32,000 nt of DNA from an uncultured Candidatus Saccharibacteria bacterium (GTDB taxonomy: Bacteria > Patescibacteriota > UBA1384 > XYA2-FULL-43-10 > 1-14-0-10-43-13). The translations under genes were made by a program, and so were the position numbers. Where the stretch lies: positions 1-32,000 of the forward strand of contig CAZIYE010000003.1 in assembly GCA_964543385.1 (NCBI GenBank), given 5' to 3'. The first letter of the stretch is position 1, and the number at the start of each line of letters is the position of its first letter. Below the pieces are notes generated by a model that had not been told where the DNA came from, did no database searches, and worked only from the letters and a program-made list of their open reading frames with translations. This document shows, in pieces, positions 2,154-31,449 of the stretch.

Positions 2154-3392
2154 CTAGGTTCCGTTTTCTCCCCAAGCTAAAACGGATTTCTTTTCTGCTG
2201 ATATACTATAGATATTTTGTTTCTCAATTACCGGTCGGCACAAACCACCATATCCACGCTCAGGGAGATCGGCGATAGTGCCGTTTATGTAGTTCCAAAC
2301 AAACATTGTTCCATCTGAATCAGTGCAAAGAATATTATTACCATGGATTTGATCTATTCGCATAGCCCTTCGGTCGATTTCCCTCACAAGCTTCATATCC
2401 TTACTATTCCAAAGCGATATCTTGCCCCAATTAGTAGAGATTAAGTATTTCTTGTCGGCTGACAGTAAAGACTGAGTAATAAAACTTTTTTCGCCACTAG
2501 GCTCAAAATACTCACCTCTTCGATTGCTTTTGCCGAGAACTTCTAAACTTTTTCCGTGACCAAAAACAAATCGTCCATCTGGCAATTCCGAGACAGAGTG
2601 GTTATCCAAACTAGTATTCGATCGATGTTGATCAACCAATTCGCCAGTCGAAAGTTTGAAGACATAGACATGAACACTTGCCTCGACAACTAATCGATCA
2701 GAATTCTCAAAAACATTGAACCATTTCACTTTGTCGAAACCATCAGGCAATGCGATTTCAACGGTTTGTGGCCCATAGAGGTCGATTATTTTTAGTGTTT
2801 TTTCATCTCGACCAAAAAATATGATTTTCTCATTGTTGGCTATCACCTCGAAATGGACAATCTCGCCATTGGAAGTGTGAGCCAACTCCACAGGCCGCTC
2901 AGTCCCATTGCTATGAATAAATAGAGAGCCGCCGATAGAGAAGATAGTACCTGGTCCGTCAACTAAAGTCTTAACTCTTCGCTCCTCATCTGGCCTCTTA
3001 TCTCCATAATCATAATGAAATAAAACCCTTTTAGTTTCCTTGTCTATAACTGCAAATGTCGTGACACCCTTCCGTGTATTCCGATCGTCACTCATTTTTT
3101 CATACAATACAAAGATTTTGCCCTCTTTCTTATCGCTATCAATACCGGCGCTAACAAGGCGAAAATCATCTTCAATATCTAAGGGTATCTCATCAACAAC
3201 CGTAAATTTCGAATACTCTGGAACCATTAAGTCTTTTATATTTTCAAAGATCAAATCCATTTCATACTTAAAACTCAAAAGATTGGTTATTTCTTTAACC
3301 TTAAAGGCATTATCAAAATCACTCTTTAGATCCCTTAGAGTCGAAATAGAATTGGTAATCTGTTGGCAACTAGGATAAGCCATTGTGTCCAA
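2154..3392 (-). CDS. Family paralog: N-terminal Cys-module + WD40-like beta-propeller domain (412 aa)
   Basis: The N-terminus MDTMAYPSCQQITNSISTLRDLKSDFDNAF carries the C-Q-x-I-T-N family motif. The remainder is strand-rich with repeat ends ISLWNSKD, MFVWNYING and VLAWGENG. It is the last gene of the co-directional cluster, with a TAG stop at 2154. Confidence 0.7.
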   Translation of the reverse strand: MDTMAYPSCQQITNSISTLRDLKSDFDNAFKVKEITNLLSFKYEMDLIFENIKDLMVPEYSKFTVVDEIPLDIEDDFRLVSAGIDSDKKEGKIFVLYEKMSDDRNTRKGVTTFAVIDKETKRVLFHYDYGDKRPDEERRVKTLVDGPGTIFSIGGSLFIHSNGTERPVELAHTSNGEIVHFEVIANNEKIIFFGRDEKTLKIIDLYGPQTVEIALPDGFDKVKWFNVFENSDRLVVEASVHVYVFKLSTGELVDQHRSNTSLDNHSVSELPDGRFVFGHGKSLEVLGKSNRRGEYFEPSGEKSFITQSLLSADKKYLISTNWGKISLWNSKDMKLVREIDRRAMRIDQIHGNNILCTDSDGTMFVWNYINGTIADLPERGYGGLCRPVIEKQNIYSISAEKKSVLAWGENGT

Positions 3393-3398
3393 TTAATA

Positions 3399-4484
3399 TT
3401 ATGCAATTCTCACTGCAGTCCTCGGAACGTGCTCATTATTTCGACCACCATTGTCATATCTGTAACATTCAATACTTTTCGCATTCTCATTCCAGTGCCC
3501 AGCGGCGATGTAATTTCCTTTTGGGTAATAAGTCCCGAGTAGAAGGCTGCCACTATTGCCAGCTTTATATTTCTCAGTTATTTGCTTGTTTTTCTCTAAA
3601 CTGTACAAGTAAAAGATCAACCATGATTCATAGGTAAATCCAATTTCATTTTGATAGGTGGCAGATTTCGAAAGTTCCTCCATCCATTCACTAAAGCTCG
3701 GAATACTTTGGCCATTCCAAATCTTACCAAATTCTTTCCCAAAAGCTTTGCCCGTCGGATCTAATTGAGTTCTTCCACCAATTGTTTCGCAATCATCGGT
3801 TTGTGGCAATTCCCATAACGGCTCGACCATCAAAATCTGCCAACCTGGAAATGCCGATTCAGATTCGACCTCACTTTTGGTTTTTCCCCCATGATTAGCC
3901 ACGTCAAAAGAGGTTGGATAATAAACCGCGCTAACTTCGAGAGATTGATGGAATTGTTCACCTGTCCATGATAGGAATACCTCTTCGGTGTTAACATCGT
4001 CAGCTATTAATCCTTGTGCTTTCAAATCGGCAACATATGACCCGACTCTAGAAGCCATATCTTCAAGATTCAAACCAAAAGGGACGAGAAGAGGCTGAGT
4101 AAATCCTTGCTTGAATTTTTCTGCAAGTTTTTCTCTTTTTTCCAGAATCACTGCATTCATTTGCTCAACACTTGGTATTGGGCAAATCTGTCCTCCCTCT
4201 CCTAAAATACCCCTCACACCATTATAGTCTCCGATCATACCTCGATCAGTCATTAAACTTATCTGATCGTTGATTATTCCCTTAAATTCATCCTTTGGTA
4301 AATTTTCAAATGGCCAAAAATATTCAAGAACCTCTCCGATCTCAATTTTTATTTTGTCATGAAGACTAAGCGCTTCTTGGATATTAATCGGTTGTTGATC
4401 AATTATAAAATCAAAATCTACTTTCGATTTAGAAAGTTTTTTAATTAAATTAGTCAAATGTTGGCAAAAAATATTATCGGCCAT
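3399..4484 (-). CDS. Family paralog: N-terminal Cys-module + orphan globular domain type 1 (361 aa)
   Basis: The N-terminus MADNIFCQHLTNLIKKLSKSKVDFDF is the family module. The C-terminal ~270 aa aligns by eye with the C-terminal third of ORF 14409..16631: GFTQPLLVPFGLNLEDM vs GFKKLLLIPFGVSINSL, FPGWQILMVEPL vs FAWQVVLSEDI, and GFTYESWLIFYLYSL vs GQIPETWLIYAMTCL. It starts 2 nt after the upstream stop. Confidence 0.7.
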   Translation of the reverse strand: MADNIFCQHLTNLIKKLSKSKVDFDFIIDQQPINIQEALSLHDKIKIEIGEVLEYFWPFENLPKDEFKGIINDQISLMTDRGMIGDYNGVRGILGEGGQICPIPSVEQMNAVILEKREKLAEKFKQGFTQPLLVPFGLNLEDMASRVGSYVADLKAQGLIADDVNTEEVFLSWTGEQFHQSLEVSAVYYPTSFDVANHGGKTKSEVESESAFPGWQILMVEPLWELPQTDDCETIGGRTQLDPTGKAFGKEFGKIWNGQSIPSFSEWMEELSKSATYQNEIGFTYESWLIFYLYSLEKNKQITEKYKAGNSGSLLLGTYYPKGNYIAAGHWNENAKSIECYRYDNGGRNNEHVPRTAVRIA

Positions 4485-4486
4485 CG

Positions 4487-4816
4487 CTACGCAGGAGTAG
4501 CCTCTGTTTGCTGTTCGCCGCCATTAAATGGCTCACCAAACATCTCTTCGTAAATGCGCGCACCGTCAAGACATGCTTCATGGTTTCCTTCTTGTCCACA
4601 AATTTCTTGCTGTGCCTCGATAATCATGTGCATATTATCTTTAAACTCGCCATCTCGCCACTCTTTTAGCTCTTTTAGTTGTAGCTCTTCGTGAGTTTTC
4701 TCCATCTCTGCAAGAGCACCATCGATCGCCTCACCGGCCTCTTCACGAAAGTCAAATTCTTCATCCTTTTTAAGTCCGGCCTCGTCAGGACCGGCACCTT
4801 GAAATTCTCCTGGCAT
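4487..4816 (-). CDS. Small acidic hypothetical protein (109 aa) immediately downstream of the AAA+ gene
   Basis: An AAGGAG SD lies 5 nt upstream of the ATG at 4816. The protein is Glu/Asp-rich and predicted helical (EEAGEAIDGALAEMEKTHEELQLKELKEWRDGEF), with two Cys in EICGQEGNHEAC. It is tightly packed between the ATPase gene (12-nt gap) and a family paralog (2-nt gap). Confidence 0.6.
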   Translation of the reverse strand: MPGEFQGAGPDEAGLKKDEEFDFREEAGEAIDGALAEMEKTHEELQLKELKEWRDGEFKDNMHMIIEAQQEICGQEGNHEACLDGARIYEEMFGEPFNGGEQQTEATPA

Positions 4817-4828
4817 GTTTCTCCTTAA

Positions 4829-7756
4829 TTATTTCCAAATATCATTAACTAGTTTATTTTTATCATCGATCGAACCACCCAAAGCTGCATCAGCTGCCTC
4901 TTTATCAATCATACCATGACCGGAAGCAAAATTGATAAGCATGTCGTAAAATTCATTTACCCCCATCAAGAAACCGGCATCATCCATCGTGTCTCTTTGC
5001 TCTTTTTTGCAGATCGGTAAAGCCCTCATTTGGTCAATGACCTCTTTGCAATCAGTCGAGCTCTCGTAGTTTTCAATGTTGGCAACCTTTCTCGCAACTT
5101 CAGCAATACCTCGCACTAGCCTCATTTTTTCTTCTTTATCAAGGTTGATAGACTTTGCTTCATTTAACTTTTGTCCTATTTTCTCATACTCCTCTTTTTT
5201 CCGAGGTGGAAGATAGCCAAAAACAATCTGCATTGTTTCAAGAGATGAAAAGTACTGTAGGGAATATTCACCATTCGTATCTAGTAAAGTAGTAAATTCT
5301 CCATTTTTTCTAACTTTCTTGTACTTTGGAACTGTATCTATCGGGTTAAAACTCATTCGCTCCTTGAATTGACCGATCGCATTGTCCCCCTGAATATCTG
5401 AATATTCTGACCAGCCCTCTCCTCGAAAGAACTGGGCCTGTTTTAACACAGCATACAGAATTGCTTGCTCCTCAGGATGACTATCATACTTTTTCACAAA
5501 ATTCCAAAGATAGTATTCAATATCCATATTGCACCCGCCATCTAGATAACCGCCGACAATATTATCCATCAATTCTCTCATCGAGAGATTAGCCTTTTTC
5601 AGCGTCTGTTTTAGCGTTGCTGCTTCGTTCGATCCAACAATTCCAGCTAAATTTAAATCTGGAAATGTAGCGGGATCAATATTACCTTCAAATAGATCCA
5701 TAATCATTCTAGCGCCAACACCAAGACGATAGAGATCTTTAAAAACAGAATATCGATCATCGGTTTTGACAAGCAGCTCGGCGCCAAGTCTTCGATTCAA
5801 AAGCTTAGTTGCGAGCACTTGGAATATTTGATCATTGATTGCATCTTTGCGATAAGTTTTAACAAACTCTTCAACATCGGTACCTTCAAAGGTCACTTCA
5901 TCGATCTTTTGCAAATCAAGTCTCGCGACATCTGATTCAATTGAATTATATGCATTCGAATTTGGTAAATATCGCACTTCGATTGGATTAATTCGACTAT
6001 AAGTGGCTGGGTCAACATCATTGAAACGAGAACTTTTATATCTATCACCAGTATTACCAGTCCAGATCACACAATAGCCAGGTTTAACTGTGATATCGCC
6101 CTTTTCCGTTCTTGTCGCAATATTGCTACCAAATTTTCTTGTGAGTAAATCATTGAATGCAATCAAGACATCAGGAGAAATAGCATTGGCTTCATCCATT
6201 ATTAACGGCCGGCCCTCTGACATTGCCTGATACATTGCACCCATAATGTATCGACCCTGGACTTGATTAGAATAAAACGTTGAAACTTGATCATCCACTC
6301 TTTTCTGTATTTCTGGGTCAAGCTCGTCTATGTCTCTGCCGTTTTTCCGGTACTCATCCAAGAGATTAGCTCTTATTTGTTCGGTAAGTTCTCCCTGAGA
6401 AGCAACTAGCTCTGTTGCAAGATCTGCGAATCTAGTATCTTCTCCAACTTCTTTATCAACACCCATATCTTTATAAATTTTTGTTAAAAACTCATTTACT
6501 GGGAGCTTTTGTATTCGGAATTCCTCAGTAAAACGATCCGGATCTAGAAACTTGCTACCAGAAACAATGATTGGCTCTTTGCCAAAACGAGTTTTTGCAA
6601 TATGAGTTGCAAGGGCAGTCTTACCAGTGCCAAAGTCACCGTGAAGATATACAATTGTTGGCGGATTCTTTTCAAGTGAAGGCAATGCGCGCTCAATAAT
6701 CTCCCGAACATATTCAGTCTCGACGATCTTTCCTTTATTTAGCAGATTGAAGAGTGATGACAATTCTTGGCGGTAGTTAACATACGAAGTGACAAAGTCC
6801 TTATCAACAGCGTCAATGTGGGCATCGTAAATCCTTTCTACTCCCAATTCGACTTTTTCGCCGAATTCTTCTTCATATGCCTCAGATAGCCAATCGCTGA
6901 CTTCGTCAATCTCCGTGGTTTCAACACCATAAATATTGGCTATCTCGTCAGGTTTTCTAACAACCTCTGGGCTCTTAGAAACATTGGCCGACAGAATACC
7001 TTTTTCCAATTTATGAATTTCTGTCAATGCTCGACGAACATCATCTTTGCTGGCAAGTCCATAAGCCTGTATTTGCGTTAACTGTTCTTCGGAAAAGGAG
7101 GATAATTTATTTAATAAAAGTTGAAAATGAGATTTCAAAAGAAATGCAATTTTCGCTGATCGACCAAGTGTTTGAGCTTTGATTGTGTCTTGAACTTTTG
7201 TGTTATCTGCTTGGTCAGAATCATTGCCAACCATTTTTTGCTCATGACGGCGTATGCCCTTAAACACCAAGTCTTTAACAACAGCTTTTGGATCTTCTTT
7301 CCATAATTGGACTAGATCTTCAAGTGTTATCTGAAGTTTGTCTCGATCTTGAAGCGTTTCAATTTTAGCCCTGATGAAATGAGAGTCAAAAACAGCATCC
7401 CCTTCTTCCCGCTGATCTTCTGGCAATGCATTCAGATATTCTTCTTTGAGTCTATCTCTCAGTGAATCGGTTCTGGACTCAGACCATGATCTCTCTTCAC
7501 CATCCTTATTTTGAATCACATCAATTATTCTTTGATACAGATTTTCATCCTTTTGGAAAGATGAACATATTGAAGATTCCGCGAGACTATCATAAGTTAC
7601 ATATTGGCCGATCTCATCAGCTATTACATGCATTTCTTCCGTGCCAACTTTGTACTCATAAGCTAATCGTTCCGCTTCTCGTGGCTCAAGCAGTTTTTCT
7701 TCAGCTTCAGTTACTTCAGGATGCGTTAATATTGGCGGGCTCATTAGTTCTGACAT
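4829..7756 (-). CDS. Large MoxR/AAA_5-like AAA+ ATPase (975 aa)
   Basis: Walker A LHGDFGTGKT is encoded at 6617..6646. Walker B LIMDEAN is at 6185..6205 and is followed by AISPDVLIAFNDLL, resembling the DExN...L..L segment of MoxR/AAA_5 ATPases. A sensor-like VIWTGNTGDRY lies downstream. A single ATPase core is flanked by ~360-aa N-terminal and ~400-aa C-terminal helical extensions I cannot assign. An AAGGA SD precedes the ATG. Confidence 0.8.
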   Translation of the reverse strand: MSELMSPPILTHPEVTEAEEKLLEPREAERLAYEYKVGTEEMHVIADEIGQYVTYDSLAESSICSSFQKDENLYQRIIDVIQNKDGEERSWSESRTDSLRDRLKEEYLNALPEDQREEGDAVFDSHFIRAKIETLQDRDKLQITLEDLVQLWKEDPKAVVKDLVFKGIRRHEQKMVGNDSDQADNTKVQDTIKAQTLGRSAKIAFLLKSHFQLLLNKLSSFSEEQLTQIQAYGLASKDDVRRALTEIHKLEKGILSANVSKSPEVVRKPDEIANIYGVETTEIDEVSDWLSEAYEEEFGEKVELGVERIYDAHIDAVDKDFVTSYVNYRQELSSLFNLLNKGKIVETEYVREIIERALPSLEKNPPTIVYLHGDFGTGKTALATHIAKTRFGKEPIIVSGSKFLDPDRFTEEFRIQKLPVNEFLTKIYKDMGVDKEVGEDTRFADLATELVASQGELTEQIRANLLDEYRKNGRDIDELDPEIQKRVDDQVSTFYSNQVQGRYIMGAMYQAMSEGRPLIMDEANAISPDVLIAFNDLLTRKFGSNIATRTEKGDITVKPGYCVIWTGNTGDRYKSSRFNDVDPATYSRINPIEVRYLPNSNAYNSIESDVARLDLQKIDEVTFEGTDVEEFVKTYRKDAINDQIFQVLATKLLNRRLGAELLVKTDDRYSVFKDLYRLGVGARMIMDLFEGNIDPATFPDLNLAGIVGSNEAATLKQTLKKANLSMRELMDNIVGGYLDGGCNMDIEYYLWNFVKKYDSHPEEQAILYAVLKQAQFFRGEGWSEYSDIQGDNAIGQFKERMSFNPIDTVPKYKKVRKNGEFTTLLDTNGEYSLQYFSSLETMQIVFGYLPPRKKEEYEKIGQKLNEAKSINLDKEEKMRLVRGIAEVARKVANIENYESSTDCKEVIDQMRALPICKKEQRDTMDDAGFLMGVNEFYDMLINFASGHGMIDKEAADAALGGSIDDKNKLVNDIWK

Positions 7757-7777: not shown

Positions 7778-10700
7778 CTATAGGTTGTTTTCAATTTTTT
7801 CCAATGTTTCCATCATCGGTTTTTCTATCTGGCTCTCGATGATCTGTGTTAGAAAAGCGCTAAACTTCTCAGCGATTTCATCTGGATTGTTGGCTGGAAT
7901 TACGTTTTCTCCGTATCTGCTTCGTAGTCCCTCAACCGCACCTGCACCAATGCCCATAGCACCGGTACCTATTGCATAATTTTCCCGCAAATACTTCATC
8001 GCATCAAAAGTATTTGCAGTTATTCCTGTATTATGATCAATCTCTTGGTGACTAATAGAGGCACCATCAGAAATTTGAAAAATAATTTCAGATAAATAAC
8101 CAGAATTCAGAAGTTCCTTTAATTTCGGGTTTTGATCATGAGCTAAAGCAATCCTAGACCAGGCCAGCGCATCTCTCGTATCACCATCTTTTGCGTTCAT
8201 TCTTTGAAATGCCCTGATTGTACTAACCGTTTCAGTCTCGGCCATTTGTAATAATGTTGGCCTTGCTCCCGATTTCGTTTTGTCGGTTAGAAATGAAAAG
8301 TCAGTAACGCTAAAAGGTTTTATCAAACTGACCCTATCTCCAAAAAGCCAGATTTCAGTATCACAAACAACATCCATCTCATCGATATTTTCCGTTACGG
8401 CGCCACCAACCACTTGCTGGAAATTCTTTCGAAAATTTCGCAATGAAGAGTTGAGCAACATCACAGACATTCGGACAGCATCAAGATTGCCACTCATACT
8501 TCCAGAGTTATCTACCAACAACAAAACTCGAAGCATCTTTGGTTTTAGCTCGGCTTTAATTTTTTCGACAATGAGTGAATGAATCAGTCTGCGATCAATA
8601 TCGGCGCCAAATTCAATTTCTGGCAGGAGTTTTTGTAATCGTTTGATATCCGGTTTCCCTTGTCGGTAATATTTATCAACGATAGTATCAATTTTCCGGG
8701 AGATATTTTTGATGATTTGTAGCCAAGCTTCAGCCATCTTGTTGGCTGGTACTCGAAGTTTTTCTTCAAGTTCGAGAAATTTGTCGACCATCTCCTGGGG
8801 TGGAAGAGGGCGGCTTTCTTGTTCCTGGCTAGCGGGTTGATTGTCTTTTAATTGATCTAACAATCTCTTAAACTTATCGTTTTGCGTTTTTTTCTTTTGA
8901 TATTCAGGACTTCTTTTCTCTGACTCGACTTCCTTTATGGTTTCGTCTCGTTCATCTTGTTCGATCATCTCTCGCAAGGCTTTTTCGTAATCACTCACAA
9001 CTTCATCAATATTCTGTGGTTCTTGTTCTGCTCCAGCACTACCAGGTTGACCGGGTTCACTCGCTGGCTGATTATCTTGTTTTTTAGGCTGACCTTTATC
9101 TTCAGATTCACCATCATCCTGATCGTCACCATCTTTATCTTCAGTTTCCTCATCGCCTGGCTCTTTTTCCTTCTCCTCACCATCTTCTTCGTATTCTGTG
9201 TCTCGATCGTCAGTAAAGTCACTTTTTCGCTGCTTCTCGTTTGACTTTTTCTTAATTACCTTCAATTTATCGTTGATTGGAGAGGTTATAGTTTCTGTGA
9301 TTCCTGCCAGCTTTGAACCATCTGCCATTTTATTTTTTTCGTCGAGATATTCCACCTCAACAGAAGTTATCCCTTCTTCATTTCGTAAAACCTTGGTAAT
9401 TATTCCTTTTTTGCCAAAATTAGGACTTTGTCGATCTTTGTTCTTCACTTTATCGCCAGGCTGCCAGTCTGGTGCTTCCTCAATTTCAGGAGGCTCCCCA
9501 CCTTCGCCACCACCCTTGCCATCACCTTTTTGTGGCTCTGGCGGCAATTCCGACTTAAAGCTATCATCAAGAACGCAGAGAAGGCTATAGAGAGGCTCTA
9601 GGATATTTCTGATGGCTCTGGTTCTAGTTACCAGATTATATTTCAAAGGCTTTGTACCAAAGACTGTTCTAGAACGGTCAACCTGCTTAAAGAGGTTGAA
9701 TATGTCCATATACTTAACATTTGAAATTTTGGAAAAATCGAAAGGTAATCCAAGTTGCTTTAAGGAATCCCTTATTTTTCTTTCAAATAATTGGGTGGCG
9801 AAATTAATATCAATTCTCTGATAATCAGAATAAACTGGACCATTTTTACCAACCTCTGCAACATTGACATATACCTCATCCCTTACATAGTTCTTCTTAC
9901 CGCCTTTAAGATCATAAAATGGGACTTTGATCTGGTCACTCATAAAATCAAGATACAAGGATAGTTTATCTGGATCATCTTTGTATTTTTGGACAAAACG
10001 CTCGAGTAACATCTTGTAAGCCTCAGAAAGTGGCCGAGTATAGATAACCCCAACATCTTCATTCAACTTATGTTTACCTTCGGGATTTTTTGATTCATCA
10101 AAAACTTCATTGGTTGACAAGCCAGTCATCTGGTTTTTCATAAAATAGGTCACAAATTGAGATGATCGATTCATCTTGGGAACAGTTTTATCCCAGTCAA
10201 AACCTTGCCCGTAATCCTCTTTCTCTGCGACTCGGATATTACCCTTTCCTTCATCAACATTGATAAGAGGATTCTGACCAAGTTGCTCCATTTGTGGCAT
10301 ATAGACAAAGTCACCGTTATTTTCACCTACTTCTAGGTAGACAGGGAAAAACTGGTTCGTATAAAGATCAACAACTTCCTGATTGTTCCTTCTTGAGTTT
10401 TCAGTGAGAGTGCGGCCATATATTCCTGTGCCAAACACCAAACTATTTACAATTGCGTCTTCGCAGATATTGTAATATTGCCGATACATCGATGCAGCAG
10501 ACATCCGAACTTTTTCGCCCTGTTCATTTCGAACAAAGTAACCTTTTTTCTTTTCATAATTAAACTGTTCAAGCTCGTTGTATTTGCCTGCTAAATCAAG
10601 CTCGCCCATAGTTTTGAGATGGGCAAATTCATGCATAGCGCCGAACATAATTTGCGCAGATGTCATACCTCTCTCTTCACGCATTTTTTTGAATTCCGTC

Positions 10701-11101: not shown

Positions 11102-11130
11102 ATTATAGCAATTTGTTGATGAAATAACAA
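11102..11130 (-). promoter_or_regulatory. Candidate sigma70-type internal promoter upstream of the vWA gene
   Basis: The minus strand reads TTGTTA (11130..11125), a 17-nt spacer, then TATAAT (11107..11102). It lies in the only sizeable intergenic gap of the cluster (67 nt, 11066..11132), about 30 nt upstream of the SD/GTG of the vWA gene. Confidence 0.4.
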
Positions 11131-13554: not shown

Positions 13555-14412
13555 TTAAATCCTTTCAACATCTTGGCGAGCAAACATTAAAAAGCGAATC
13601 AATACTTTTTCCTTATACCGAGCGTTGCGTTTATAGATCCATGTTAGCCAAAAAGGTGTATCTGCGTAAGTATCAGAGTGATATCCTATAACCCTTGCAG
13701 GCTCACGATACTTTGAATGTTCACATTGCTCAGCTAGAAGCAACACGCCGCCGCCATTTCTTCCATAATCATCCATAAAACTGTCGTTTTTTAGATAATG
13801 GTAAATCTGATGGAGTAGGTATTCCTTACGGGTATAACCGTCTAAATCTGGATTTTTTGCAGAAACCTCTCTTGCCATATCCGAAAAAGCAACTGGATAG
13901 CAAGGTTGGTTATTGGAGTGGGCATCTTTTGCCAGTTCTTGTGGCTTCGTATAGACAATATAGCTTCTTTGTGGACGCGGAGAACTAGTAATTTTGTCTT
14001 CGTCACCTTCATCGACAGGACTATAATCTTCTCTTATAAAATAATTATTTAATTTCAATTGTTCGTCCGCCGGCACCTTCAAATCAAGGGTGTCTAAGAT
14101 AACAATTGGCTGAGTATAACCTTCTCGCTCTGCGATTTCTTTCGATTCGGGACTCAGATCGAGAAGTTCACCGTTTTTATATAATTCAGAAATATTTACC
14201 TCTACCCCAAGCCAATCGTATAATTTCTGATTTCTATTAATCATTTTAAATTTTTCGGTTACTTCCAGAATATCCTGTCGATTTAATATCTCGGTCAGCT
14301 TACTCTTAATATTAAGAGCCCCCTCAATCTCGTTATCATCGACAAAATCACTAAATTCATCTCGAGAGCTCTTTATCTCGGTGATTATTTGTGTTATTTC
14401 TTGGCAATTCAT
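13555..14412 (-). CDS. Family paralog: N-terminal Cys-module + orphan globular domain type 2 (285 aa)
   Basis: N-terminus MNCQEITQIITEIKSSRDEF. The body aligns by eye with ORF 16628..17617: KLYDWLGVEVNISELYKNGELLDLSPESKEIAEREGYTQPIVI vs PVFDWLDLGINLKNEIFTGNILLPTNEEYAESKKHGFSEILII, and DGYTRKEYLLHQIYHYLK vs DGLTLEQGVMLLINRYKK. I recognised no known motif. Confidence 0.7.
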   Translation of the reverse strand: MNCQEITQIITEIKSSRDEFSDFVDDNEIEGALNIKSKLTEILNRQDILEVTEKFKMINRNQKLYDWLGVEVNISELYKNGELLDLSPESKEIAEREGYTQPIVILDTLDLKVPADEQLKLNNYFIREDYSPVDEGDEDKITSSPRPQRSYIVYTKPQELAKDAHSNNQPCYPVAFSDMAREVSAKNPDLDGYTRKEYLLHQIYHYLKNDSFMDDYGRNGGGVLLLAEQCEHSKYREPARVIGYHSDTYADTPFWLTWIYKRNARYKEKVLIRFLMFARQDVERI

Positions 14413-25278: not shown

Positions 25279-26637
25279 TTATGAGAAAACCCGTCTGCCT
25301 TTTTTATCGATATAGAACATATTATTATGGCCGTCGCTTAGAATTTTTCCGACCAAGGCAACACCGTCTTTAAACGGCTGTGCTGTTGTTATTCTCTCGT
25401 CAGATTCAATAATGCTTCCGTCTAATGTGATCAACTCCTGCTCACGTACGGTTGTTTGCAGTGCTCTCCCGTCTGATGTCGTGAAATTAAATTGTTCGCT
25501 AGGGCCACTAACAAATCCTAAACCTTCAGAAAAATCATGTATCACAAATCGCTCTCCTTCTCTCTCCAAGAGTATTTTTCCTGTAATGTCGACTAGGTGG
25601 TAGGAGCATATCTGTGGAGGCCCATTACTAATAGTCTTCTCAAAAAGTAGTAAGCCATCCTTTATTTTGCTATGAATAGGATTTATTTTTCCAAGAGACT
25701 CCGTCTGAAATTCACGAATAATTTTCCCATGAATATCAATAAGAAGGGTTTTCCCGTCCGCTGTTTGCACAAAAGCACGATCTTGGTAAAAATCAGTGGC
25801 ACTCTCGAATCCTTGACCAAGTACACCTTCATTAAGATTTTCGCCTTTTTGATTTATAAAGTACCAAGAATTATTCGATCTATTTTTTCCAAATCGATCG
25901 CAAACTTTAGCAATACCGGTGTTTAGGTCACCCATACCATCTTCGAAGAATTTACTCGGATCTTTTGGTATCCTTTCCCCACTCGGAGCAACATGCCAAG
26001 CGCCAAAATCCGGCGTATGCAGCCCCAGATACCCAGAACCGCTCCAACGATCATCCATAATTCTCCCTATATCGATCGTCCTAATCTCATTTCCTTTGTA
26101 ATCAATCAGATGATATTTTTGTTTCTCCTCTTGCCCATGATAGCGAACAAGCGCCTGGCCAAATTTATATGAATTAGCTTCTCTATAATTTTTATCGTCA
26201 ATTCTTTTTCCATCAACATCGATATAATAATGTCCTTTTTGACCGCCAGAGGCTTCAATTGAAACCAACGCCAATCCTTCAGAGAAGTCCGAAATTTTGC
26301 ATTTCTTGTCATTATCTTCAGAGAAAATGACCTCTCCTTTTTTATTAATCAAAATCTCGGGAGATTCTAGGCCTTCCAGTTTAAAAACGGCTTTTGCTAG
26401 TCCATATTCATTGAACTTTCCGACAAAAGAATAACCTTTTTCTTTGGCGATTCTATCTCGTAGCTCAACTTGGTCGCTGTCTAAAAATTCTAGAAGCTCT
26501 GCAATTTCCGATCTTATCTGTCTTTTTGTTTCCAAAGCAAGATTGAGCGGATTATTTTCGGTGACAACTAAACCAGGCGCGGTTCGAGCGACTTTTTTTA
26601 TAAGATTCGTATAGTTTTCACAAGTTGGTGTAAACAT
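25279..26637 (-). CDS. Family paralog: variant Cys-module (MFTPTCENYTN) + WG-type repeat domain (~452 aa)
   Basis: The ORF track starts at a TTG (26640). The ATG at 26637 is the more likely start and shares its A with the upstream TGA stop (TGATG). Repeats include FSEGLALVSIEASGGQKGHYYIDVDGKRI, FGQALVRYHG..KYHLIDYKGNEI, GIAKVCDRFG...WYFINQKGENL, FSEGLGFV and FKDGVALVGK...MFYIDKKGRRVFS. Confidence 0.8.
   Translation of the reverse strand: MFTPTCENYTNLIKKVARTAPGLVVTENNPLNLALETKRQIRSEIAELLEFLDSDQVELRDRIAKEKGYSFVGKFNEYGLAKAVFKLEGLESPEILINKKGEVIFSEDNDKKCKISDFSEGLALVSIEASGGQKGHYYIDVDGKRIDDKNYREANSYKFGQALVRYHGQEEKQKYHLIDYKGNEIRTIDIGRIMDDRWSGSGYLGLHTPDFGAWHVAPSGERIPKDPSKFFEDGMGDLNTGIAKVCDRFGKNRSNNSWYFINQKGENLNEGVLGQGFESATDFYQDRAFVQTADGKTLLIDIHGKIIREFQTESLGKINPIHSKIKDGLLLFEKTISNGPPQICSYHLVDITGKILLEREGERFVIHDFSEGLGFVSGPSEQFNFTTSDGRALQTTVREQELITLDGSIIESDERITTAQPFKDGVALVGKILSDGHNNMFYIDKKGRRVFS
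26554..26637 (-). repeat. 84-bp near-identical 5'-end repeat, copy 1 (partner at 27876..27959)
   Basis: A base-by-base comparison at an offset of 1322 nt gives 83/84 identical positions; the single difference is c at 26608 versus t at 27930. Identity drops abruptly upstream of 26554/27876. Confidence 0.9.
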
Positions 26638-27959
26638 CAACTAAATACCCTTCTACCTTTTTTATCGATATAGACTGGATGACTAACTCGAAATCCATTC
26701 TTATCTCTTTCTACTGGATCATCATACGTGAATTTGGCTACGCCATTTTTGAAACCTATTTCCAATCGAGTCACAGGCTCTTCAATTTCTGCGAAATTAC
26801 CATAGGTATCAACAAGATAATTTTTGCCCTCATGGGCCATGAAACTCAATCCCTCATGAAAAGGAGAGAAAACTTGTTGGTATTCTCCCTGGATTAGGAC
26901 ATTTCCGTTTAAATCCATGACTGTTCTGCCCTGCGTTGCAAGATTGCCATTTCGGTTGATGAAAGTAATTATCCCTTCGGAATAGGTGTGGCTTGCCTGT
27001 ACAACCGAGCCGAGCTCTGACCTGTGACCTACCTCTTTAATTTTATCGCCTTTTGAATTGATAATCAAAATGTGCCCTTGGACGGTTTCGATAAAGGCCC
27101 TGTCATTATAAAAATTTGAAATAGCACGAAAATTCAATGATAATACCCCTTCATCAAGACGTTTACCGTTTTGGTCAATATAATACCAAGTTTGCCGTTC
27201 ATGATCCGTAACACGTCCGTCCTGGCCCTTACCCAATCGATCACAGACCTTTGCGATACCGTTGTTTAGGTCGCCAGCACCATCCTCAAAATATTTGCTG
27301 GGGTCACTCGGAATTCTTTCGCCATTCGGCGAAATATACCATATCCCAGAACCGCTCTGGTGAACTTTCAAATATCCAGCGTCAGAACCTTCGAAATAGG
27401 CTGCCTCTGGAAGTTCGAATTCCCTGATTTGATTTCCCAATAAATCAATTATGGCATGGTTTTTCTTATTTGTTTCCCCGCGATATCTAACAACTGCTTG
27501 GCCAAATTTATATGGGTGAGCTTCTTGATAAACTTTACCATTTAACCGTTGTCCATCTTCTTTGATATAATAGCTACCATTGGTTGATTCAATAATGGCG
27601 ATTCCGTCAAAGAATTCTTTTATCAAGAAACTGTCTTGTTCACTTGGTAATATCTTTTCCCCACGCGCATTGATCAATACAGATGCCGCCTTAAAATTAG
27701 TATCTAACCTGGCTATCGCTAACCCATGCTTATTGAACTTATCTACAAATTTATAGCCTTTTTCTTTTGCGATCCGATCCCGTAATTCAATCTGATCACC
27801 ATTCATGAATTCAAGACATTGGGCAAGTTCATTTTGTACTTGCTTTTTTGTTTCTATTGCTGATTTGATTGGATGATTTTCGGTGACAACTAAACCAGGC
27901 GCGGTTCGAGCGACTTTTTTTATAAGATTTGTATAGTTTTCACAAGTTGGTGTAAACAT
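26637..27959 (-). CDS. Family paralog: variant Cys-module (MFTPTCENYTN) + WG-type repeat domain (440 aa)
   Basis: The first 28 aa are identical to the neighbour 25279..26637, after which identity falls to roughly 60%. Repeats are FFDGIAIIESTNGSYYIKEDGQRL, FGQAVVRYRG...AIIDLLGNQI, GIAKVCDRLG...WYYIDQNGKRL, FHEGLSFMAHEGKNYLVDTYGNF and FKNGVAKF...VYIDKKGRRVFS. Confidence 0.8.
   Translation of the reverse strand: MFTPTCENYTNLIKKVARTAPGLVVTENHPIKSAIETKKQVQNELAQCLEFMNGDQIELRDRIAKEKGYKFVDKFNKHGLAIARLDTNFKAASVLINARGEKILPSEQDSFLIKEFFDGIAIIESTNGSYYIKEDGQRLNGKVYQEAHPYKFGQAVVRYRGETNKKNHAIIDLLGNQIREFELPEAAYFEGSDAGYLKVHQSGSGIWYISPNGERIPSDPSKYFEDGAGDLNNGIAKVCDRLGKGQDGRVTDHERQTWYYIDQNGKRLDEGVLSLNFRAISNFYNDRAFIETVQGHILIINSKGDKIKEVGHRSELGSVVQASHTYSEGIITFINRNGNLATQGRTVMDLNGNVLIQGEYQQVFSPFHEGLSFMAHEGKNYLVDTYGNFAEIEEPVTRLEIGFKNGVAKFTYDDPVERDKNGFRVSHPVYIDKKGRRVFS
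27876..27959 (-). repeat. 84-bp near-identical 5'-end repeat, copy 2 (partner at 26554..26637)
   Basis: See copy 1. It covers codons 1-28 (MFTPTCENYTNLIKKVARTAPGLVVTEN) of both genes. Confidence 0.9.
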
Positions 27960-27964
27960 AATAT

Positions 27965-28849
27965 CTAAACCTCACTTCCATCGAAAAAATACCAGGCCTT
28001 TTCATGGTAAACGACAACCCCATCTGGATGTGCGCTGAAGGTTATATCCTCAGCGCCAAATTTATCCGTTAAATCAACAAGGACTTTTGTATTGTTTAAA
28101 TAAATTTTTCCGTCACGCTTAATCAAAAAGCCCCTTGGATGACCGCGCCAGCTTGCTTTTTCGCCGGAATATAGGGCTTGGCCAGTATGCAAGCGAATTT
28201 CCAGATTATTCCAGTCCGAGTAGCCAAGCAATACACCTCTTTCTGTCACATCCCAATTCGACAATTCCATTGATACATTTGATATATTACTTTTCTCAAT
28301 CGGGATTGGATTATCTCTGTCGCCATTAAGAAGAAATTCATCTGTATTTTTGTTATAAACGACACAATCGTTGCCAAAGACACGAAAATCAAATTGACCA
28401 TTGCGATCACTAGTAAAAACCCTCTTTCGGCTTGCCCTATTAAACAAATAATCGAAGTCCATATGCGCATCAGTACTTTTATAAAAGAGGCTACTCGCCG
28501 AAGAGATAACTTGGTCTCGAGGTGCCTTAGATCCAAGCCCATGCCACTGTCCAAGCGGATCGACATAACGTATGCTATCACTATCAGAGATCAATATCCC
28601 ATCTTTAAAAGACTGCCAACTACTATACCTATTATTAGATCGAGCTATAACTTCGCCATTAGTATATTTTTTCCATTCACGATAATGGCGTTCAGAAAAA
28701 TGTATCTCTAATAAATCTTCGAGCTCCTGTTTTATCTCTATCGCTTCCTCGACGATTTTGTTTATCGACAAAACATTTTTCATTTCACTATCCGTGTCTT
28801 GCAGGCCCCTCAAAACGTTTGTAAATTTTTGGCAGTCATACCCAATCAT
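27965..28849 (-). CDS. Family paralog: N-terminal Cys-module + unclassified beta-rich domain (294 aa)
   Basis: N-terminus MIGYDCQKFTNVLRGLQDTDSEM (C-Q-x-F-T-N). The body is strand-rich (FDFRVFGNDCVVYNKNTDEFLLNG, GFLIKRDGKIYLNNTKVLVDL, GVVVYHEKAWYFFDGSEV) and lacks the FSEGLA WG signature. The ATGA overlaps the upstream stop. Confidence 0.65.
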   Translation of the reverse strand: MIGYDCQKFTNVLRGLQDTDSEMKNVLSINKIVEEAIEIKQELEDLLEIHFSERHYREWKKYTNGEVIARSNNRYSSWQSFKDGILISDSDSIRYVDPLGQWHGLGSKAPRDQVISSASSLFYKSTDAHMDFDYLFNRASRKRVFTSDRNGQFDFRVFGNDCVVYNKNTDEFLLNGDRDNPIPIEKSNISNVSMELSNWDVTERGVLLGYSDWNNLEIRLHTGQALYSGEKASWRGHPRGFLIKRDGKIYLNNTKVLVDLTDKFGAEDITFSAHPDGVVVYHEKAWYFFDGSEV

Positions 28850-30126
28850 GCGAATACCTTCCTGCCATTCTTATCAATGTAATATGTTGGCTGGCTCCAT
28901 TGATCTTGGACTTTAGCCACGCCGTCGATGAATGGTCTGGCGTCAGCAAAATGCTTTGTACCAAAGGTACCATTTCCTGGGAAAAGCGCTTTGCCAACCT
29001 TGTTTATGTAAATACGGCCGCCATCTGTGTTGTCCTCGTTTACCCCTATATCTTCGGGTAAAACAACGCTTGCCCCTTCGTGAAAATCATCCACCGAAAT
29101 ATAATTCGAAACACTAAAAGCTTCTCTCTCGTCGGTATCAATAAAAATATTCCTTGTAATATCGTTCTCATATTGATCTAGAGAATCTTCTCGGACAAGT
29201 GCCAAACCGTCACTAAAATCGTTCGCATCCGAATAAACTTCTCCTTCAGTGGAAAAGCTGCCAGTATCAGCGTTATATTTCAAGAAATAATGTCCTGTTT
29301 CAGAAATTTGATATCGAGCCATACCATCACGGAGCGGATGAATGTCTGTTACGGCCAATAAATTCAAGTCTGTTATGTTACCTTCTATATCAACAGCAAA
29401 CCAATCATTTGAAAAATCGCAATAAAAAGCGTAGTTTTCACTAAATTGAGTAAACTTTTCAACATTTTCAAGCACTAATTTTTCCTTGCCTGTTTCGTCG
29501 ATAATTCTGTATTTATTATCTTCTTTTCTTGTCCAGGATCGCCCACAAGCAAAATCTGTCGCTAATTCATATTTATCATTCCATTCAGAACCATCAGGAT
29601 TAAGAAAAGTATATGTTTTACTGCCGCCGGGAGCAAAATTCCACACCAGTCTAGGAACGCTTTCACTGACGGAAACATAGTTTTTGGATATTTTTTCACC
29701 TTTCTGATCGACCAAAAAATAGCGATAGGTTCTCTCGGAAGTCATTTCGTCATCGCTAATATCATATTCACCAACAACACAAGTGCCTTTTTGAAATTTA
29801 CCAAATGATGCAATTTGCTGGCCAATATAATCCTTGATCACCTCGCCTGAAGCCGAAACAAGGATATAGTCTTCGCCAGGTTTTCGACCAAAAGCTAATC
29901 CTTCGCTAAAATTTCCTAGCCAGGCAAGACCAAGATTTTTTGCAATTTTATCTCTTACGGTAATTTGATCAGGGTCGATTCTTTCTAGAAGGTGCTCGAC
30001 TTCAGAATTAATTTCCTTGTATTTTCTCCATGCCTCAGCAATATTGCCTTCAGTAAAAATACCTTTGTATTCGGTAAAAAGGATCTTTAGCTGTCGTACC
30101 CCATTTGTCAGTGCATTACAATTCAT
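28846..30126 (-). CDS. Family paralog: N-terminal Cys-module + WG-type repeat domain (426 aa)
   Basis: N-terminus MNCNALTNGVRQLKILFTEY. The linker VRDKIAKNLGLAWLGNFSEGLAFG is followed by FACGRSWTRKEDNKYRIIDETGKE, LRDGMARYQISETGHYFLKY, FSDGLALVRED, FHEGASVVLPE...RIYINKVGKALF and FIDGVAKVQDQWSQPTYYIDKNGRKVFA. Confidence 0.8.
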   Translation of the reverse strand: MNCNALTNGVRQLKILFTEYKGIFTEGNIAEAWRKYKEINSEVEHLLERIDPDQITVRDKIAKNLGLAWLGNFSEGLAFGRKPGEDYILVSASGEVIKDYIGQQIASFGKFQKGTCVVGEYDISDDEMTSERTYRYFLVDQKGEKISKNYVSVSESVPRLVWNFAPGGSKTYTFLNPDGSEWNDKYELATDFACGRSWTRKEDNKYRIIDETGKEKLVLENVEKFTQFSENYAFYCDFSNDWFAVDIEGNITDLNLLAVTDIHPLRDGMARYQISETGHYFLKYNADTGSFSTEGEVYSDANDFSDGLALVREDSLDQYENDITRNIFIDTDEREAFSVSNYISVDDFHEGASVVLPEDIGVNEDNTDGGRIYINKVGKALFPGNGTFGTKHFADARPFIDGVAKVQDQWSQPTYYIDKNGRKVFA

Positions 30127-30138
30127 ACTGTTTCATAC

Positions 30139-31449
30139 TTAGGCAAATACTTTCTGTCCCTTTTTATTAATATAATAAGGCTCACTATCTGGTTGATCTT
30201 GAACGCAGGCCATGCCATCTTGATATGGCCGTGCCTTGTAAAAATGCTTTGCGCCGTCAATCCCTTCGCCAGAGAAGAGCGGCTTTCCTTCAGTATTAAT
30301 ATACGTCCAGCCACCAAAACGATTATCAACATCGTCAAGATCTATCTGTACCGCCGCAGCACCTTCAGAAAAATCAGTAATAGAGAGGTAGGTCTCTAGA
30401 AAAGCTTGCTCCCCAGCCTTGTTGATAAAGTAATACTTAATAGGATTGCCTTCGACGCGAGAACCAACCGCAGCAAAACCACAAGAAAAATCACCGGCCT
30501 CTTCAAAATACTCAGCCTCATCCTCGGATTTGCCTTTGTTCAAATCGTCGAGACCAGCATTCGCTAGTGTCGCATAGCTAAAAAATCTATTGTTTCCCGT
30601 GACATGCTTGTATTCCCTCCTAATTATGCCCTCCGACAGTCTGTGCAAATCCTCACCACCAAACCAATATTGAGGCAACAAATTTCCCTGTTGGTCAAAG
30701 CATTGCCAAAAAGGAGCAAAACCACGTTCTTTGACTTGTACAAACGAATATCCCTCTGAGAATGGTTTAACTTTTAGATATTTACCTTGATGAAGCATGT
30801 TGCCGCTTTCATCAATTAATTTATATGGCCCGTTTTCTTCAATCTGGACCCAGGCTCGGTTATCATTAAAAGAAGTAGCGAAGAAAAATGAATCCTCGCC
30901 ATCTACGATAATTTTTTCTCCATCATGCTTAACAAGCGACCATTTATTTTTCAATGTGTCATTCTTTTTTGCCAAATAAATACCACTATCTGAAAATTCA
31001 ACTTGAGCATACCAGTCTCTGCCTAATTTTCCGCTCGAATCAATAATTGACCACTTGGGAAGCGGACCTCTTATTCCAACATATTGAACCCATGCTAAAC
31101 CATTTTTGAATGGCTTGGCATAAATAGCAGGAATCGTTTCGTCTGAAAAGTGAAGGACAATCTCAGCGTTTTCATTCACCAAACTTACCATTTTTTCGTG
31201 TTGTTCTCTTCCCCAAGCCAAGCCCTCGCTAAATTTATCAAGCCAAGATAAACCAAGTTCTTTAGCAATTCGATCTCTTTTCCTAATCTGATCGGGCTCT
31301 GTTTCTTCAAGTAAATATTCTGATTTTGAATAAATCTCTTTTTTATCATGAAGAGCATCGGCAATTTGCCTGCTATTAAAATAACTCTCAAGAGATTTAA
31401 GAATTTTCCGAATTTCTACTATTCCCTTTGTTATCCCCTCACAATTCAT
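30139..31449 (-). CDS. Family paralog: N-terminal Cys-module + WG-type repeat domain (436 aa)
   Basis: N-terminus MNCEGITKGIVEIRKILKSLESYF. The linker KRDRIAKELGLSWLDKFSEGLAWG is followed by FKNGLAWVQYVG...WSIIDSSGKL, FNDNRAWVQIEENGPYKLIDESGNML, FSEGYSFVQV, FSCGFAAVGSRVEGNPIKYYFINKAGEQAF, FSEGAAAVQI...WTYINTEGKPLF and YQDGMACVQDQPDSEPYYINKKGQKVFA. A GAGGT SD lies upstream. Confidence 0.8.
   Translation of the reverse strand: MNCEGITKGIVEIRKILKSLESYFNSRQIADALHDKKEIYSKSEYLLEETEPDQIRKRDRIAKELGLSWLDKFSEGLAWGREQHEKMVSLVNENAEIVLHFSDETIPAIYAKPFKNGLAWVQYVGIRGPLPKWSIIDSSGKLGRDWYAQVEFSDSGIYLAKKNDTLKNKWSLVKHDGEKIIVDGEDSFFFATSFNDNRAWVQIEENGPYKLIDESGNMLHQGKYLKVKPFSEGYSFVQVKERGFAPFWQCFDQQGNLLPQYWFGGEDLHRLSEGIIRREYKHVTGNNRFFSYATLANAGLDDLNKGKSEDEAEYFEEAGDFSCGFAAVGSRVEGNPIKYYFINKAGEQAFLETYLSITDFSEGAAAVQIDLDDVDNRFGGWTYINTEGKPLFSGEGIDGAKHFYKARPYQDGMACVQDQPDSEPYYINKKGQKVFA

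Follow-up and report, generated by a model that had tools for sequence, protein, structure and literature searches.

The first 32,000 nt of contig CAZIYE010000003.1 (positions 1-32,000), from an uncultured Candidatus Saccharibacteria bacterium (GCA_964543385.1) and referred to here as the window, encode an array of paralogous proteins together with three core genes: a MoxR-like AAA+ ATPase of 975 aa, a 1095-aa protein combining an HExxH domain with a von Willebrand factor A (vWA) domain, and a 109-aa acidic protein with one invariant cysteine. The paralogs, called clients below, begin with a common cysteine-capped helical module (the N-Cys tag, or N-module) and continue into domains of several different kinds. 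The feature is real and conserved within the Candidate Phyla Radiation (CPR); what it does, and by what mechanism, we infer.

Organisation of the locus

All 18 paralogs that are complete in the window lie, with the core genes, on the minus strand and are read in the order g01-g16, 1095-aa gene, 975-aa gene, 109-aa gene, g17 and g18 (Table 1). Intergenic gaps are at most 68 nt throughout, and neighbouring genes overlap by 4 nt at nine junctions. This agrees with the description given by an initial interpretation made from the DNA letters and their open reading frames (the sequence-only reading), namely 18 co-directional, tightly packed paralogs, sixteen upstream and two downstream of the ATPase and the 1095-aa gene; the conserved 109-aa gene had been passed over. 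GC content is uniform at ~39-41% and GC skew is constant across the window. The packing makes the single transcription unit proposed earlier plausible, a claim on which promoter and terminator scans of the window, returning as many sites as shuffled sequences, have no bearing. The sole sizeable gap (68 nt, upstream of the vWA gene) contains a good sigma-70-like match with an extended -10 (11102-11130, minus strand; TTGTTA-17-TATAAT preceded by TG), which may serve the core genes as an internal promoter. Nothing relevant emerged from scans of the window for Rfam families, tRNAs and tandem repeats.

The gene truncated at the right edge had been taken as a hint that the array goes on, and it does: on the contig around g01 (locus L043) this gene, g0, is a 742-aa paralog that starts MQCEQITSY and contains a TPR region, and upstream of it follow a 386-aa propeller-like paralog, a 382-aa WG-repeat paralog and a further WG gene cut by the end of the contig. 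The array comprises at least 22 tagged genes and is at least 35 kb long.

Table 1. Genes and mapped features of the locus, in order of transcription of the minus-strand unit, followed by the two plus-strand neighbours (positions refer to the window).
Feature	Position (nt)	Strand	Remarks
Client g0 (3' part in window)	31473-32000	-	full gene in L043, 742 aa; N-Cys module + TPR repeats
Client g01	30139-31449	-	N-Cys module + WG repeats
Client g02	28846-30126	-	N-Cys module + WG repeats
Client g03	27965-28849	-	N-Cys module + beta-rich domain without family match
Client g04	26637-27959	-	N-Cys module + WG repeats; first ~87 nt near-identical to g05
Client g05	25279-26640	-	N-Cys module + WG repeats
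Client g06	23847-25262	-	N-Cys module + GXGXG-like beta-helix class
Client g07	22385-23821	-	N-Cys module + GXGXG-like class
Client g08	21109-22380	-	N-Cys module (MNCQEVTKF), in-frame TAG, WG-repeat body
Client g09	19760-21112	-	N-Cys module + GXGXG-like domain (Pfam score under cut-off)
Client g10	18717-19763	-	N-Cys module + WG repeats (Pfam E 9e-42)
Client g11	17614-18720	-	N-Cys module + beta-rich domain without family match
Client g12	16628-17617	-	N-Cys module + orphan domain related to g14
Client g13 (fusion)	14409-16631	-	N-Cys module + WG repeats + internal Cys-less module + QGF domain
Client g14	13555-14412	-	N-Cys module + orphan domain related to g12
Client g15	12497-13549	-	N-Cys module + WG repeats (Pfam E 8e-43); tag Cys is the sole Cys
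Client g16	11133-12500	-	N-Cys module + GXGXG-like domain (Pfam score under cut-off)
Core gene, HExxH + vWA protein	7778-11065	-	1095 aa
HExxH domain	9551-10894	-	aa 58-505
HExxH motif	10619-10633	-
Five-strand small beta-barrel		-	aa ~535-605
Acidic disordered linker		-	aa ~606-690
Long helices		-	aa ~690-840
vWA domain		-	aa ~840-1095
MIDAS motif DxSxS	8498-8512	-	within vWA domain
Core gene, AAA_5 (MoxR/CobS-like) ATPase	4829-7756	-	975 aa
Walker A, GDFGTGKT	6617-6640	-
Walker B, IMDEAN	6188-6205	-
Core gene, acidic helical one-Cys protein	4487-4816	-	109 aa
Invariant Cys of the one-Cys protein	4598-4600	-	aa 73
Client g17	3399-4484	-	N-Cys module + QGF domain (target type of diversity-generating retroelements, presumably C-type lectin-like)
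Client g18	2154-3392	-	N-Cys module + beta-propeller-like domain, weak WD40 hints only; last gene of the unit
PLD-like nuclease, hydrophobic tail	409-1098	+	PLDc_2 E 5e-9; PADLOC MkoC/DrmC-like matches, MkoC-like E 4e-11
Acidic coiled-coil protein	1386-2126	+	convergent neighbour of the unit

The N-terminal tag of the clients

Every paralog in the window starts with a leader of 2-8 residues followed by C-x3-T. In the wider family the tag opens with a leader of 2-10 residues and the invariant Cys, after which come an amphipathic helix with heptad spacing (~25 residues) and then another helix. In an ungapped alignment anchored on the Cys and holding 113 non-redundant members from many lineages, positions +3, +7, +10 and +17 are hydrophobic in 98-100% and position +21 in 89%, which is a heptad pattern, and Glu or Asp is enriched at +16 and +18 (44-55%). 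The sequence-only reading had described a helical module of ~60-70 residues with an invariant Cys and Thr. The module is indeed common to all and its Cys invariant, but the Thr is kept only within the genome of the window (T at +4 in 38% of the family), and strong conservation spans ~25-30 residues, that is helix 1, with the remainder to ~60 residues being loose.

It had been left open whether the similarity extends beyond the subset of paralogs starting MNCQEIT. The pattern of a Cys within the first 12 residues and hydrophobic residues at +3, +7, +10 and +17 is present in 19/21 paralogs, compared with 0.62% of 200,000 shuffles and ~1% of unrelated open reading frames (ORFs). A hidden Markov model (HMM) built from the MNCQEIT subset scores g18, g01, g17, g03 and g02 above all 20,000 shuffles and leaves g04-g07 and g09 undetected, and an HMM built from other genomes only gives shuffle p < 2e-4 for g08 and g10-g18, but weak values for g01-g07 and g09 (p 0.001-0.28). 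Outside the subset the similarity is thus seen in the pattern, while the HMM scores of g01-g07 and g09 are weak; we take the position-specific evidence as decisive and judge the N-terminal similarity to be beyond chance.

As had been supposed, the module matched no named family: no Pfam match of the paralogs covers it, nor does any in NCBIfam, PADLOC or PHROGs for the paralogs scanned. A 52-sequence profile of the module run against a set of 5.8 billion proteins yielded 67 candidates past the word index and one 100-aa match, on contigs too short to inform. An anti-sigma zinc motif of the zf-HC2 type was considered and rejected, the module having no HxxxCxxC, no Pfam match and a single conserved Cys. 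A lipoprotein signal or signal peptide was likewise dismissed for want of a hydrophobic stretch (maximum KD19 1.23), and neither transmembrane (TM) segments nor signal peptides were found in any component of the system. Cysteines are scarce in the clients, at 1-9 per protein.

Two clients depart from the simple layout. The 740-aa protein g13 is a fusion of two former genes, and its second, internal module (aa 409-451, nt 15279-15407; QNYLQYIKTLSIKKNSFD) has a Tyr in place of the Cys, which suggests that the Cys matters only near the N-terminus. In g08 an in-frame TAG at 22114-22116 splits the module (start 22380) from the WG body, with an ATG 10 codons downstream from which the untagged body could still be expressed; the split is probably a pseudogene or a sequencing error, but could be regulated.

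The constancy of the tag is also visible in the DNA. The 5' ends of g05 (26551-26637) and g04 (27873-27959) are 97-100% identical over ~87 nt, ~60% identical further on and unrelated upstream, a pattern that indicates recent gene conversion or recombination restricted to the tag. In g08 and g10-g16 the start regions share 77-93% identity over the first ~27 nt (ATGAAYTGCCARGAAATAACA; for example 12474-12500, 17591-17617 and 19737-19763), synonymous sites included, and then fall to random identity; short-tract gene conversion, or a nucleotide-level constraint on translation initiation or coupling, are possible causes. Identity confined to the tag fits the description of a constant module on a swappable body.

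The core proteins

The 975-aa protein matches Pfam AAA_5 with 32.0 bits against a cut-off of 22 (E 1.4e-7), its homologues carry PF07728, and G373, D374, G376, G378, K379 and T380 of Walker A as well as I519, D521, E522, A523 and N524 of the Walker B region are invariant in 20 homologues, in agreement with its identification as an AAA_5/MoxR-like ATPase with intact Walker motifs; the MoxR clade itself is defined by a helix-2 insert (Kaur et al. 2020). The ATPase has long N- and C-terminal extensions, a partial match to GvpN and a match to the phage CobS-like PHROG 249, annotated 'porphyrin biosynthesis' (E 7e-13); sequence and profile searches against PDB returned nothing useful.

The vWA domain of the 1095-aa protein escapes sequence profiles altogether. 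The protein has no Pfam or NCBIfam match, and comparison with the Pfam VWA models and with vWA sequences in PDB gave no match even at E <= 10 or with an 11-sequence profile. In the AlphaFold2 (AF2) model of the full protein (mean pLDDT 73.8), the region nevertheless adopts a vWA fold by Foldseek, with CMG2 (7n1o, E 8e-7) among 58 matches at E <= 1e-3 that also include the metal-ion-dependent adhesion site (MIDAS) domain of Rea1 (6qt8 and 6qtb, E ~2e-6) and NorD (9qhg). The MIDAS motif is complete: D852, S854, S856, D965 and D1000 are invariant in both alignments of homologues (11 + 16 sequences), and T963 is invariant in alignment A2 and at least 90% conserved in A4. The assignment as a vWA protein, made earlier from the letters, is therefore borne out by fold and motif. 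In the HExxH domain, H145, E146, H149, E202 and D203 are invariant in the same two alignments (27 homologues). Modelled alone (aa 58-505) this domain reaches a pLDDT of 90.8 and a pTM of 0.90, with an order of secondary-structure elements (three strands, helix, HExxH helix, helix, hairpin, ED helix) that is compatible with a zincin.

The third core gene encodes an acidic protein of 54-144 aa and directly follows the ATPase gene in 24/24 distinct loci, including loci free of clients. One Cys is its only invariant residue and is its sole Cys in 19/24. Across the 24 loci this Cys is preceded by a heptad helix with hydrophobic residues at -4, -8, -11 and -15 and by Glu at -2 in 71% (Glu or Asp in 79%) and at -7 in 67%. 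The helix-then-Cys layout of the small protein is the mirror image of the Cys-then-helix layout of the client tag. In the system as a whole the ATPase measures ~1000 aa and the HExxH-vWA protein ~1000-1150 aa.

Linkage of tag and core in other CPR genomes

Only 29 relatives of the ATPase could be detected among the 5.8 billion proteins; those that are named belong to CPR, Candidatus Buchananbacteria being one. Scanning gave 13 loci in species-representative genomes and 20 in metagenomes, labelled Saccharibacteria, Parcubacteria, Berkelbacteria, Peribacteria, Gracilibacteria and Buchananbacteria. Counted from the ATPase, and with duplicates and contigs with less than 2 kb of flank removed, at least one tagged gene stands beside the ATPase/vWA homologues in 17/21 distinct informative loci from at least six CPR groups. 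Gene order in these loci varies, and the tag HMM gave only two weak false matches (E 0.1-0.2) among 415 ORFs. The linkage of tag and core is not chance; the recurrent association with AAA_5 and vWA genes that the sequence-only reading anticipated extends through deep CPR lineages.

The size of the client set differs widely. Eleven tagged genes are present in L013 (example start MSNLNCPQLKKQL), at least nine in L039 (example start MNCKELTTFLQKVL), nine in L046, seven in L016 (example start MNENCQKWHEQ), five in L012, four each in L017 and L044, and one to three in each of several further loci, giving a range of 0 to at least 22 clients per core locus. The closest relative, with 63% identity in the ATPase, has only four clients, and copy number therefore shifts quickly. 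A minimal complete unit is found in L045, where the ATPase, the small protein, the vWA protein and one WG client lie between housekeeping genes.

In L019, a locus labelled 'uncultured Gammaproteobacteria', both the core genes and the tagged clients are of the kind usual in the CPR family, and the contig is probably mis-binned. A related contig (L013/L041, 1-4500) is listed as viral in IMG/VR and adjoins a C1q-domain fibre-like protein, an Amidase_2 lysin and an AAA_14/DUF4143 ATPase. A phage origin of the system was considered and set aside, as prophage-like neighbours occur on this one contig and the other loci lie among housekeeping genes.

Client domains and the link to diversity-generating retroelements

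WG repeats (WG_beta_rep, PF14903) are found in eight genes of the window, as first described: g01, g02, g08, g10, g13 and g15 exceed the 25.6-bit cut-off, and g04 and g05 fall below it and are linked by BLAST. Of the four genes assigned to a GXGXG beta-helix, g16 and g09 match PF01493 with 29.6 and 24.7 bits, under the gathering cut-off of 32.5, and g06 and g07 are placed only by BLAST (E 1e-13 to 1e-20); the four form a GXGXG-like class. The three genes read as WD40-like or beta-rich (g03, g11 and g18) are beta-rich singletons, with weak WD40 hints in g18 only. Both orphan classes hold, g12 being homologous to g14 (E 3e-9) and g17 to the C-terminal half of g13. Across loci, WG-repeat clients are the most widespread class (26/72 non-redundant members, 9 loci), and GXGXG-type clients are present in Berkelbacteria too.

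The domain shared by g17 and g13, called QGF here, ties the array to diversity-generating retroelements (DGRs), a nature of 'orphan type 1' that the first reading missed. Its motifs follow the order QGFTKLLLVPFG, GKTK, W.ILL.ED.P.IP, GGR.Q, Y.GE.G.TPE and a C-terminal G.R.AVR[IV]. In L022 a complete DGR (1-2030) lies directly upstream of the vWA-ATPase pair, with a variable repeat (VR, 199-315), a template repeat (TR, 602-718), bAvd (717-1058, minus strand; E 6e-11) and a reverse transcriptase (RT, 1036-2028; RVT_1 E 1e-21). The TR/VR pair is 117 nt long, its mismatches fall at TR adenines in 9/9 cases, and the VR covers the 39 C-terminal residues of a QGF-domain protein whose N-terminus falls off the contig. 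Because the VR lies in its C-terminus, QGF is a variable-protein domain of the DGR type and, as such, a ligand-binding domain. A DGR within the window itself was looked for and rejected, there being no RT and no TR/VR pair. The QGF domain had no Pfam match in g17 and 20 representatives and no sequence or profile match in PDB; its fold is presumably that of a C-type lectin (CLec).

QGF also adjoins the core in L016, L017, L019 and L026, and a full HMMER search of 1.84 billion representatives gave 629 clusters with E <= 1e-3, of which 447 reach E <= 1e-10. The best 148 representatives, the two top matches being g17 and g13 themselves, comprise ~41 with the N-Cys tag, ~100 without it and seven untagged AAA_5-QGF fusions (P0051, P0054, P0114, P0137, P0140, P0196 and P0197; AAA_5 E 1e-7 to 4e-13), one of which is labelled Patescibacteria. 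A second group of QGF proteins (P0081, P0090, P0099, P0111 and P0150) is ~750-850 aa long with an N-terminal region that has no Pfam match; the motif VGVEIEFG of P0081 may be amidoligase-like. The motifs of g12 and g14 run colinear with those of QGF, KHGFSEILIIPG being similar to QGFTKLLLVPFG and GYTRKEYLLHQIYHYLKNDSFMDDYGRNGGG to G.TPEDWLIYALTHLEETNQVIDDYQGNG. Membership of these two proteins in the QGF family was rejected, as the HMM is not significant (E 0.07-0.08), and they may be very divergent relatives.

A proposed docking role and its alternatives

We consider the tag to be a docking tag by which interchangeable binder proteins plug into a MoxR/vWA transducer, and assign this reading, drawn from sequence comparison, a rough probability of 0.5. 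The fusion of a client domain class to AAA_5 and the recurrent linkage both fit a docking or adaptor role. The N-module would dock the binder proteins onto the ATPase/vWA machine, the client helix pairing antiparallel with the helix of the small protein and bringing both cysteines together, an arrangement proposed because the two Cys/helix layouts mirror each other. The paired cysteines could form a thiol link or a metal clasp in the style of a cysteine switch or zinc clasp; with the two His of the HExxH domain, whose metal site they might complete, an inter-protein metal site is conceivable. It would then fall to the MIDAS/vWA domain and the AAA+ motor to remodel the client, to relay its ligand-bound state or, alternatively, to trigger HExxH proteolysis. 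On this model the tag would substitute for covalent tethering to the ATPase, which fits the AAA_5-QGF fusions being untagged. Because of the DGR link and the binder-type domains, the clients would be sensors or receptors, with the MoxR/vWA(/HExxH) core as transducer or remodeller. The array could, in analogy to 'antigen sensor' systems of the DGR-diversified CLec-AAA and MoxR-vWA types, be a germline repertoire of recognition proteins directed at phage or other invaders or at the host cell of the epibiont.

A more explicit form of the model envisages a Cys-clasp docking code, in which the tag Cys helix lies antiparallel to the adaptor Cys helix and, with the His pair of HExxH, makes an inter-protein metal site that reversibly plugs germline or DGR-diversified receptors into the MoxR/MIDAS motor, a modular receptor exchange for immunity or host recognition, peculiar to the ultrasmall bacteria of the CPR. 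We put this forward tentatively and think it unlikely.

Several observations weigh against a docking role. Neither in the ATPase nor in the vWA protein does the N-module HMM detect a copy. About 70% of the QGF representatives examined lack the tag, and tagged QGF clusters may outnumber the detected ATPase clusters, so that clients may not be strictly dependent on the machine. In three long loci, L015, L020 (=L004) and L038, the vWA, ATPase and small-protein genes lack a tagged client over a distance of 10 kb, or over a shorter one in L038, where the contig ends sooner; L015 and L020 are both from Peribacteria, and the clients of these three loci may be located elsewhere or the core may work independently of clients. 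Foldseek gives the HExxH domain, confident as its model is, no significant match (best E 0.55 in PDB and 0.08 in BFVD) and no similarity to known peptidase folds. The 'metallopeptidase-like' label of the sequence-only reading accordingly holds at the level of the invariant HExxH...ED motif only, and metal binding and catalysis are deduced from the motif alone. The use of the array in defence, in particular, is weakened by the absence of effector domains (nuclease, TIR and similar) and by neighbourhoods that consist mostly of housekeeping genes. In the window, the unit terminates at 2154, facing two convergent plus-strand genes (Table 1) that may be defence-related.

The HExxH domain is also central to an alternative in which it acts as a peptidase that trims the leader and exposes an N-terminal Cys, and an AAA+/vWA chaperone builds the repeat proteins into one large structure, for instance a cytoplasmic scaffold or an attachment apparatus, in parallel with GvpN, CbbQO and RavA-ViaA as assembly chaperones. 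The catalytic Glu of HExxH is invariant in all 27 homologues; the leaders are short and variable with the Cys as sole fixed residue, and most of them, MNC for example, would not be substrates of methionine aminopeptidase. The client domains are of scaffold type and not enzymes, the ATPase has its partial GvpN match, and characterised MoxR-vWA pairs are maturation chaperones (PMC9976466, PMC4660213). The missing peptidase fold speaks against such processing, as does a client number that runs from 0 to at least 22, with only 4 in the closest relative, which would be odd if the composition of the structure were fixed; that a DGR hypermutates a client, moreover, suits recognition better than architecture. 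We therefore regard processing and assembly as doubtful.

Metal chemistry could alternatively be the purpose of the system, with the small Cys protein and the HExxH site passing a metal to the N-terminal Cys of the client in an AAA+/vWA-driven manner, as in NorQD, CoxDE or CobST. The CobS-like ATPase (PHROG 249, E 7e-13), the NorD match of the vWA fold, an N-domain/acidic linker/vWA layout that recalls CobT and BchD, and invariant residues that are all potential metal ligands (Cys, Cys, His-x3-His) are in line with this. A single invariant ligand per client with no conserved second one is, however, unlike a cofactor site, the client domains are not known metalloenzymes, and a CobN/BchH-like or reductase partner is seen in no locus; metal delivery is accordingly improbable.

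As a further alternative, the N-module could direct proteins of adhesin or effector type to the cell pole or into an unconventional secretion pathway, the ATPase serving as secretion chaperone. WG-repeat, beta-helix and propeller domains are typical of surface and adhesin proteins, and a helical-hairpin N-domain ahead of a variable C-domain resembles the logic of LXG/WXG100 substrates. CPR bacteria are, in addition, epibionts in need of host-binding proteins (PMC13622651). Yet neither a TM segment nor a signal peptide occurs in any component or conserved neighbour, no translocon-like gene is conserved in the loci, and the AAA_5-QGF fusions suggest that the domain works joined to a cytoplasmic ATPase, which makes export or targeting very improbable. 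That an expanded paralog family merely sits beside an unrelated ATPase/vWA pair, as the client-free loci (L015, L020, L038) and a QGF family far larger than the detected ATPase family might be taken to mean, is scarcely credible given adjacency in 17/21 informative loci of deep lineages with variable gene order, independent fusion of a client domain to AAA_5 ATPases, and the mirrored invariant Cys/heptad features of client and small protein.

Implications

CPR/Patescibacteria genomes measure ~1 Mb, and because at least 35 kb of a genome of this type is spent on one system, the system is unlikely to be marginal. The analysis defines a conserved four-part module consisting of tag, small Cys protein, HExxH-vWA protein and AAA_5 ATPase, and provides in the tag a sequence handle for locating its clients. 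It further ties the module to the AAA-CLec DGR targets, the commonest yet functionally unexplained class of DGR targets in CPR, and brings to light an HExxH domain whose confident model is without counterpart in PDB and BFVD. If the docking model is true, many interchangeable recognition domains would be coupled to one ATP-driven transducer via a short Cys-capped helix, and not by domain fusion or a Death-like adaptor, and sensing and signalling by the hypervariable binders of CPR would become directly testable with recombinant proteins. A Cys-clasp code, if true, would explain the role of the abundant AAA-CLec DGR targets of CPR.

Comparison with known systems

Literature searches found no description of this CPR system, and the tag, the small Cys protein and the HExxH domain appear to be undescribed. 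The MoxR-vWA maturation pairs (NorQ/NorD, CbbQ/CbbO, CobS/CobT, RavA/ViaA and GvpN) likewise place an AAA_5 gene beside a vWA/MIDAS partner; NorD is among the fold matches, and the ATPase has partial CobS-like and GvpN-like matches. In contrast to these pairs, both core proteins are here ~3x larger, the known clients (Rubisco, NOR, CobN and gas-vesicle genes) are absent, and the clients form a tagged multigene family.

Rea1/Midasin is comparable by analogy only. It has an AAA_5 motor, a D/E-rich linker and a MIDAS domain that seizes a ubiquitin-like (UBL) domain shared by beta-propeller clients. Its MIDAS domain ranks with the best fold matches, the MIDAS domain of both systems follows an acidic linker, and in both cases differing repeat or propeller proteins (Rsa4 and Ytm1 for Rea1) carry one common small N-terminal recognition domain. 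In our system, by contrast, motor and MIDAS are on two proteins, and the tag is a Cys-capped helical module and not a UBL domain, without an invariant acidic residue for the MIDAS (Glu or Asp only 44-55% at +16 and +18).

Features are also shared with the CLec-AAA ATPase DGR targets of CPR and DPANN (Paul et al. 2017, as summarised in PMC10907252). In the DGR target of L022 the VR lies in the QGF domain, the one present in g17 and g13, and the fusion of this domain to AAA_5 in seven representatives fits the CLec-AAA description as given in that summary. The difference is that QGF in the window carries the N-Cys tag and is not fused to an ATPase, and that RT, TR and VR are absent there.

Parallels also exist with the MoxR-vWA ternary conflict systems, which use effector-associated adaptor domains (Kaur, Burroughs, Iyer & Aravind, eLife 2020, PMC7159879), and whose DGR-diversified versions have been read as antigen sensors (Dore et al., PNAS 2024, PMC10907252); CPR were left out of the multicellularity statistics of the ternary-system survey (PMC7159879). 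Common to both are an AAA+ ATPase of the MoxR clade, a vWA protein and a third component that is conserved, with variable ligand-binding or repeat domains joined by a small helical adaptor, an association with DGRs (here in one related locus) and components that are all predicted to be cytoplasmic. They differ in that the window proteins match no VMAP-C, iSTAND, FtsH or effector-associated domain (EAD) Pfam model, that the vWA domain is here C-terminal behind HExxH and theirs N-terminal with effectors behind, and that the vWA protein here has no propeller and the third component is a one-Cys protein of 54-144 aa. The variable domains, moreover, are here distributed over up to at least 22 separate paralogs, enzymatic effectors are lacking, and the system is confined to CPR. 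A homotypic adaptor of the EAD type was considered for the tag and rejected, as the large core proteins carry no copy of the module and the paralogs match no Pfam EAD model. Because of the small one-Cys protein and the DGR/CLec-type nature of orphan type 1, the locus is closer to the known MoxR-vWA and AAA-CLec sensor systems than the sequence-only reading had assumed.

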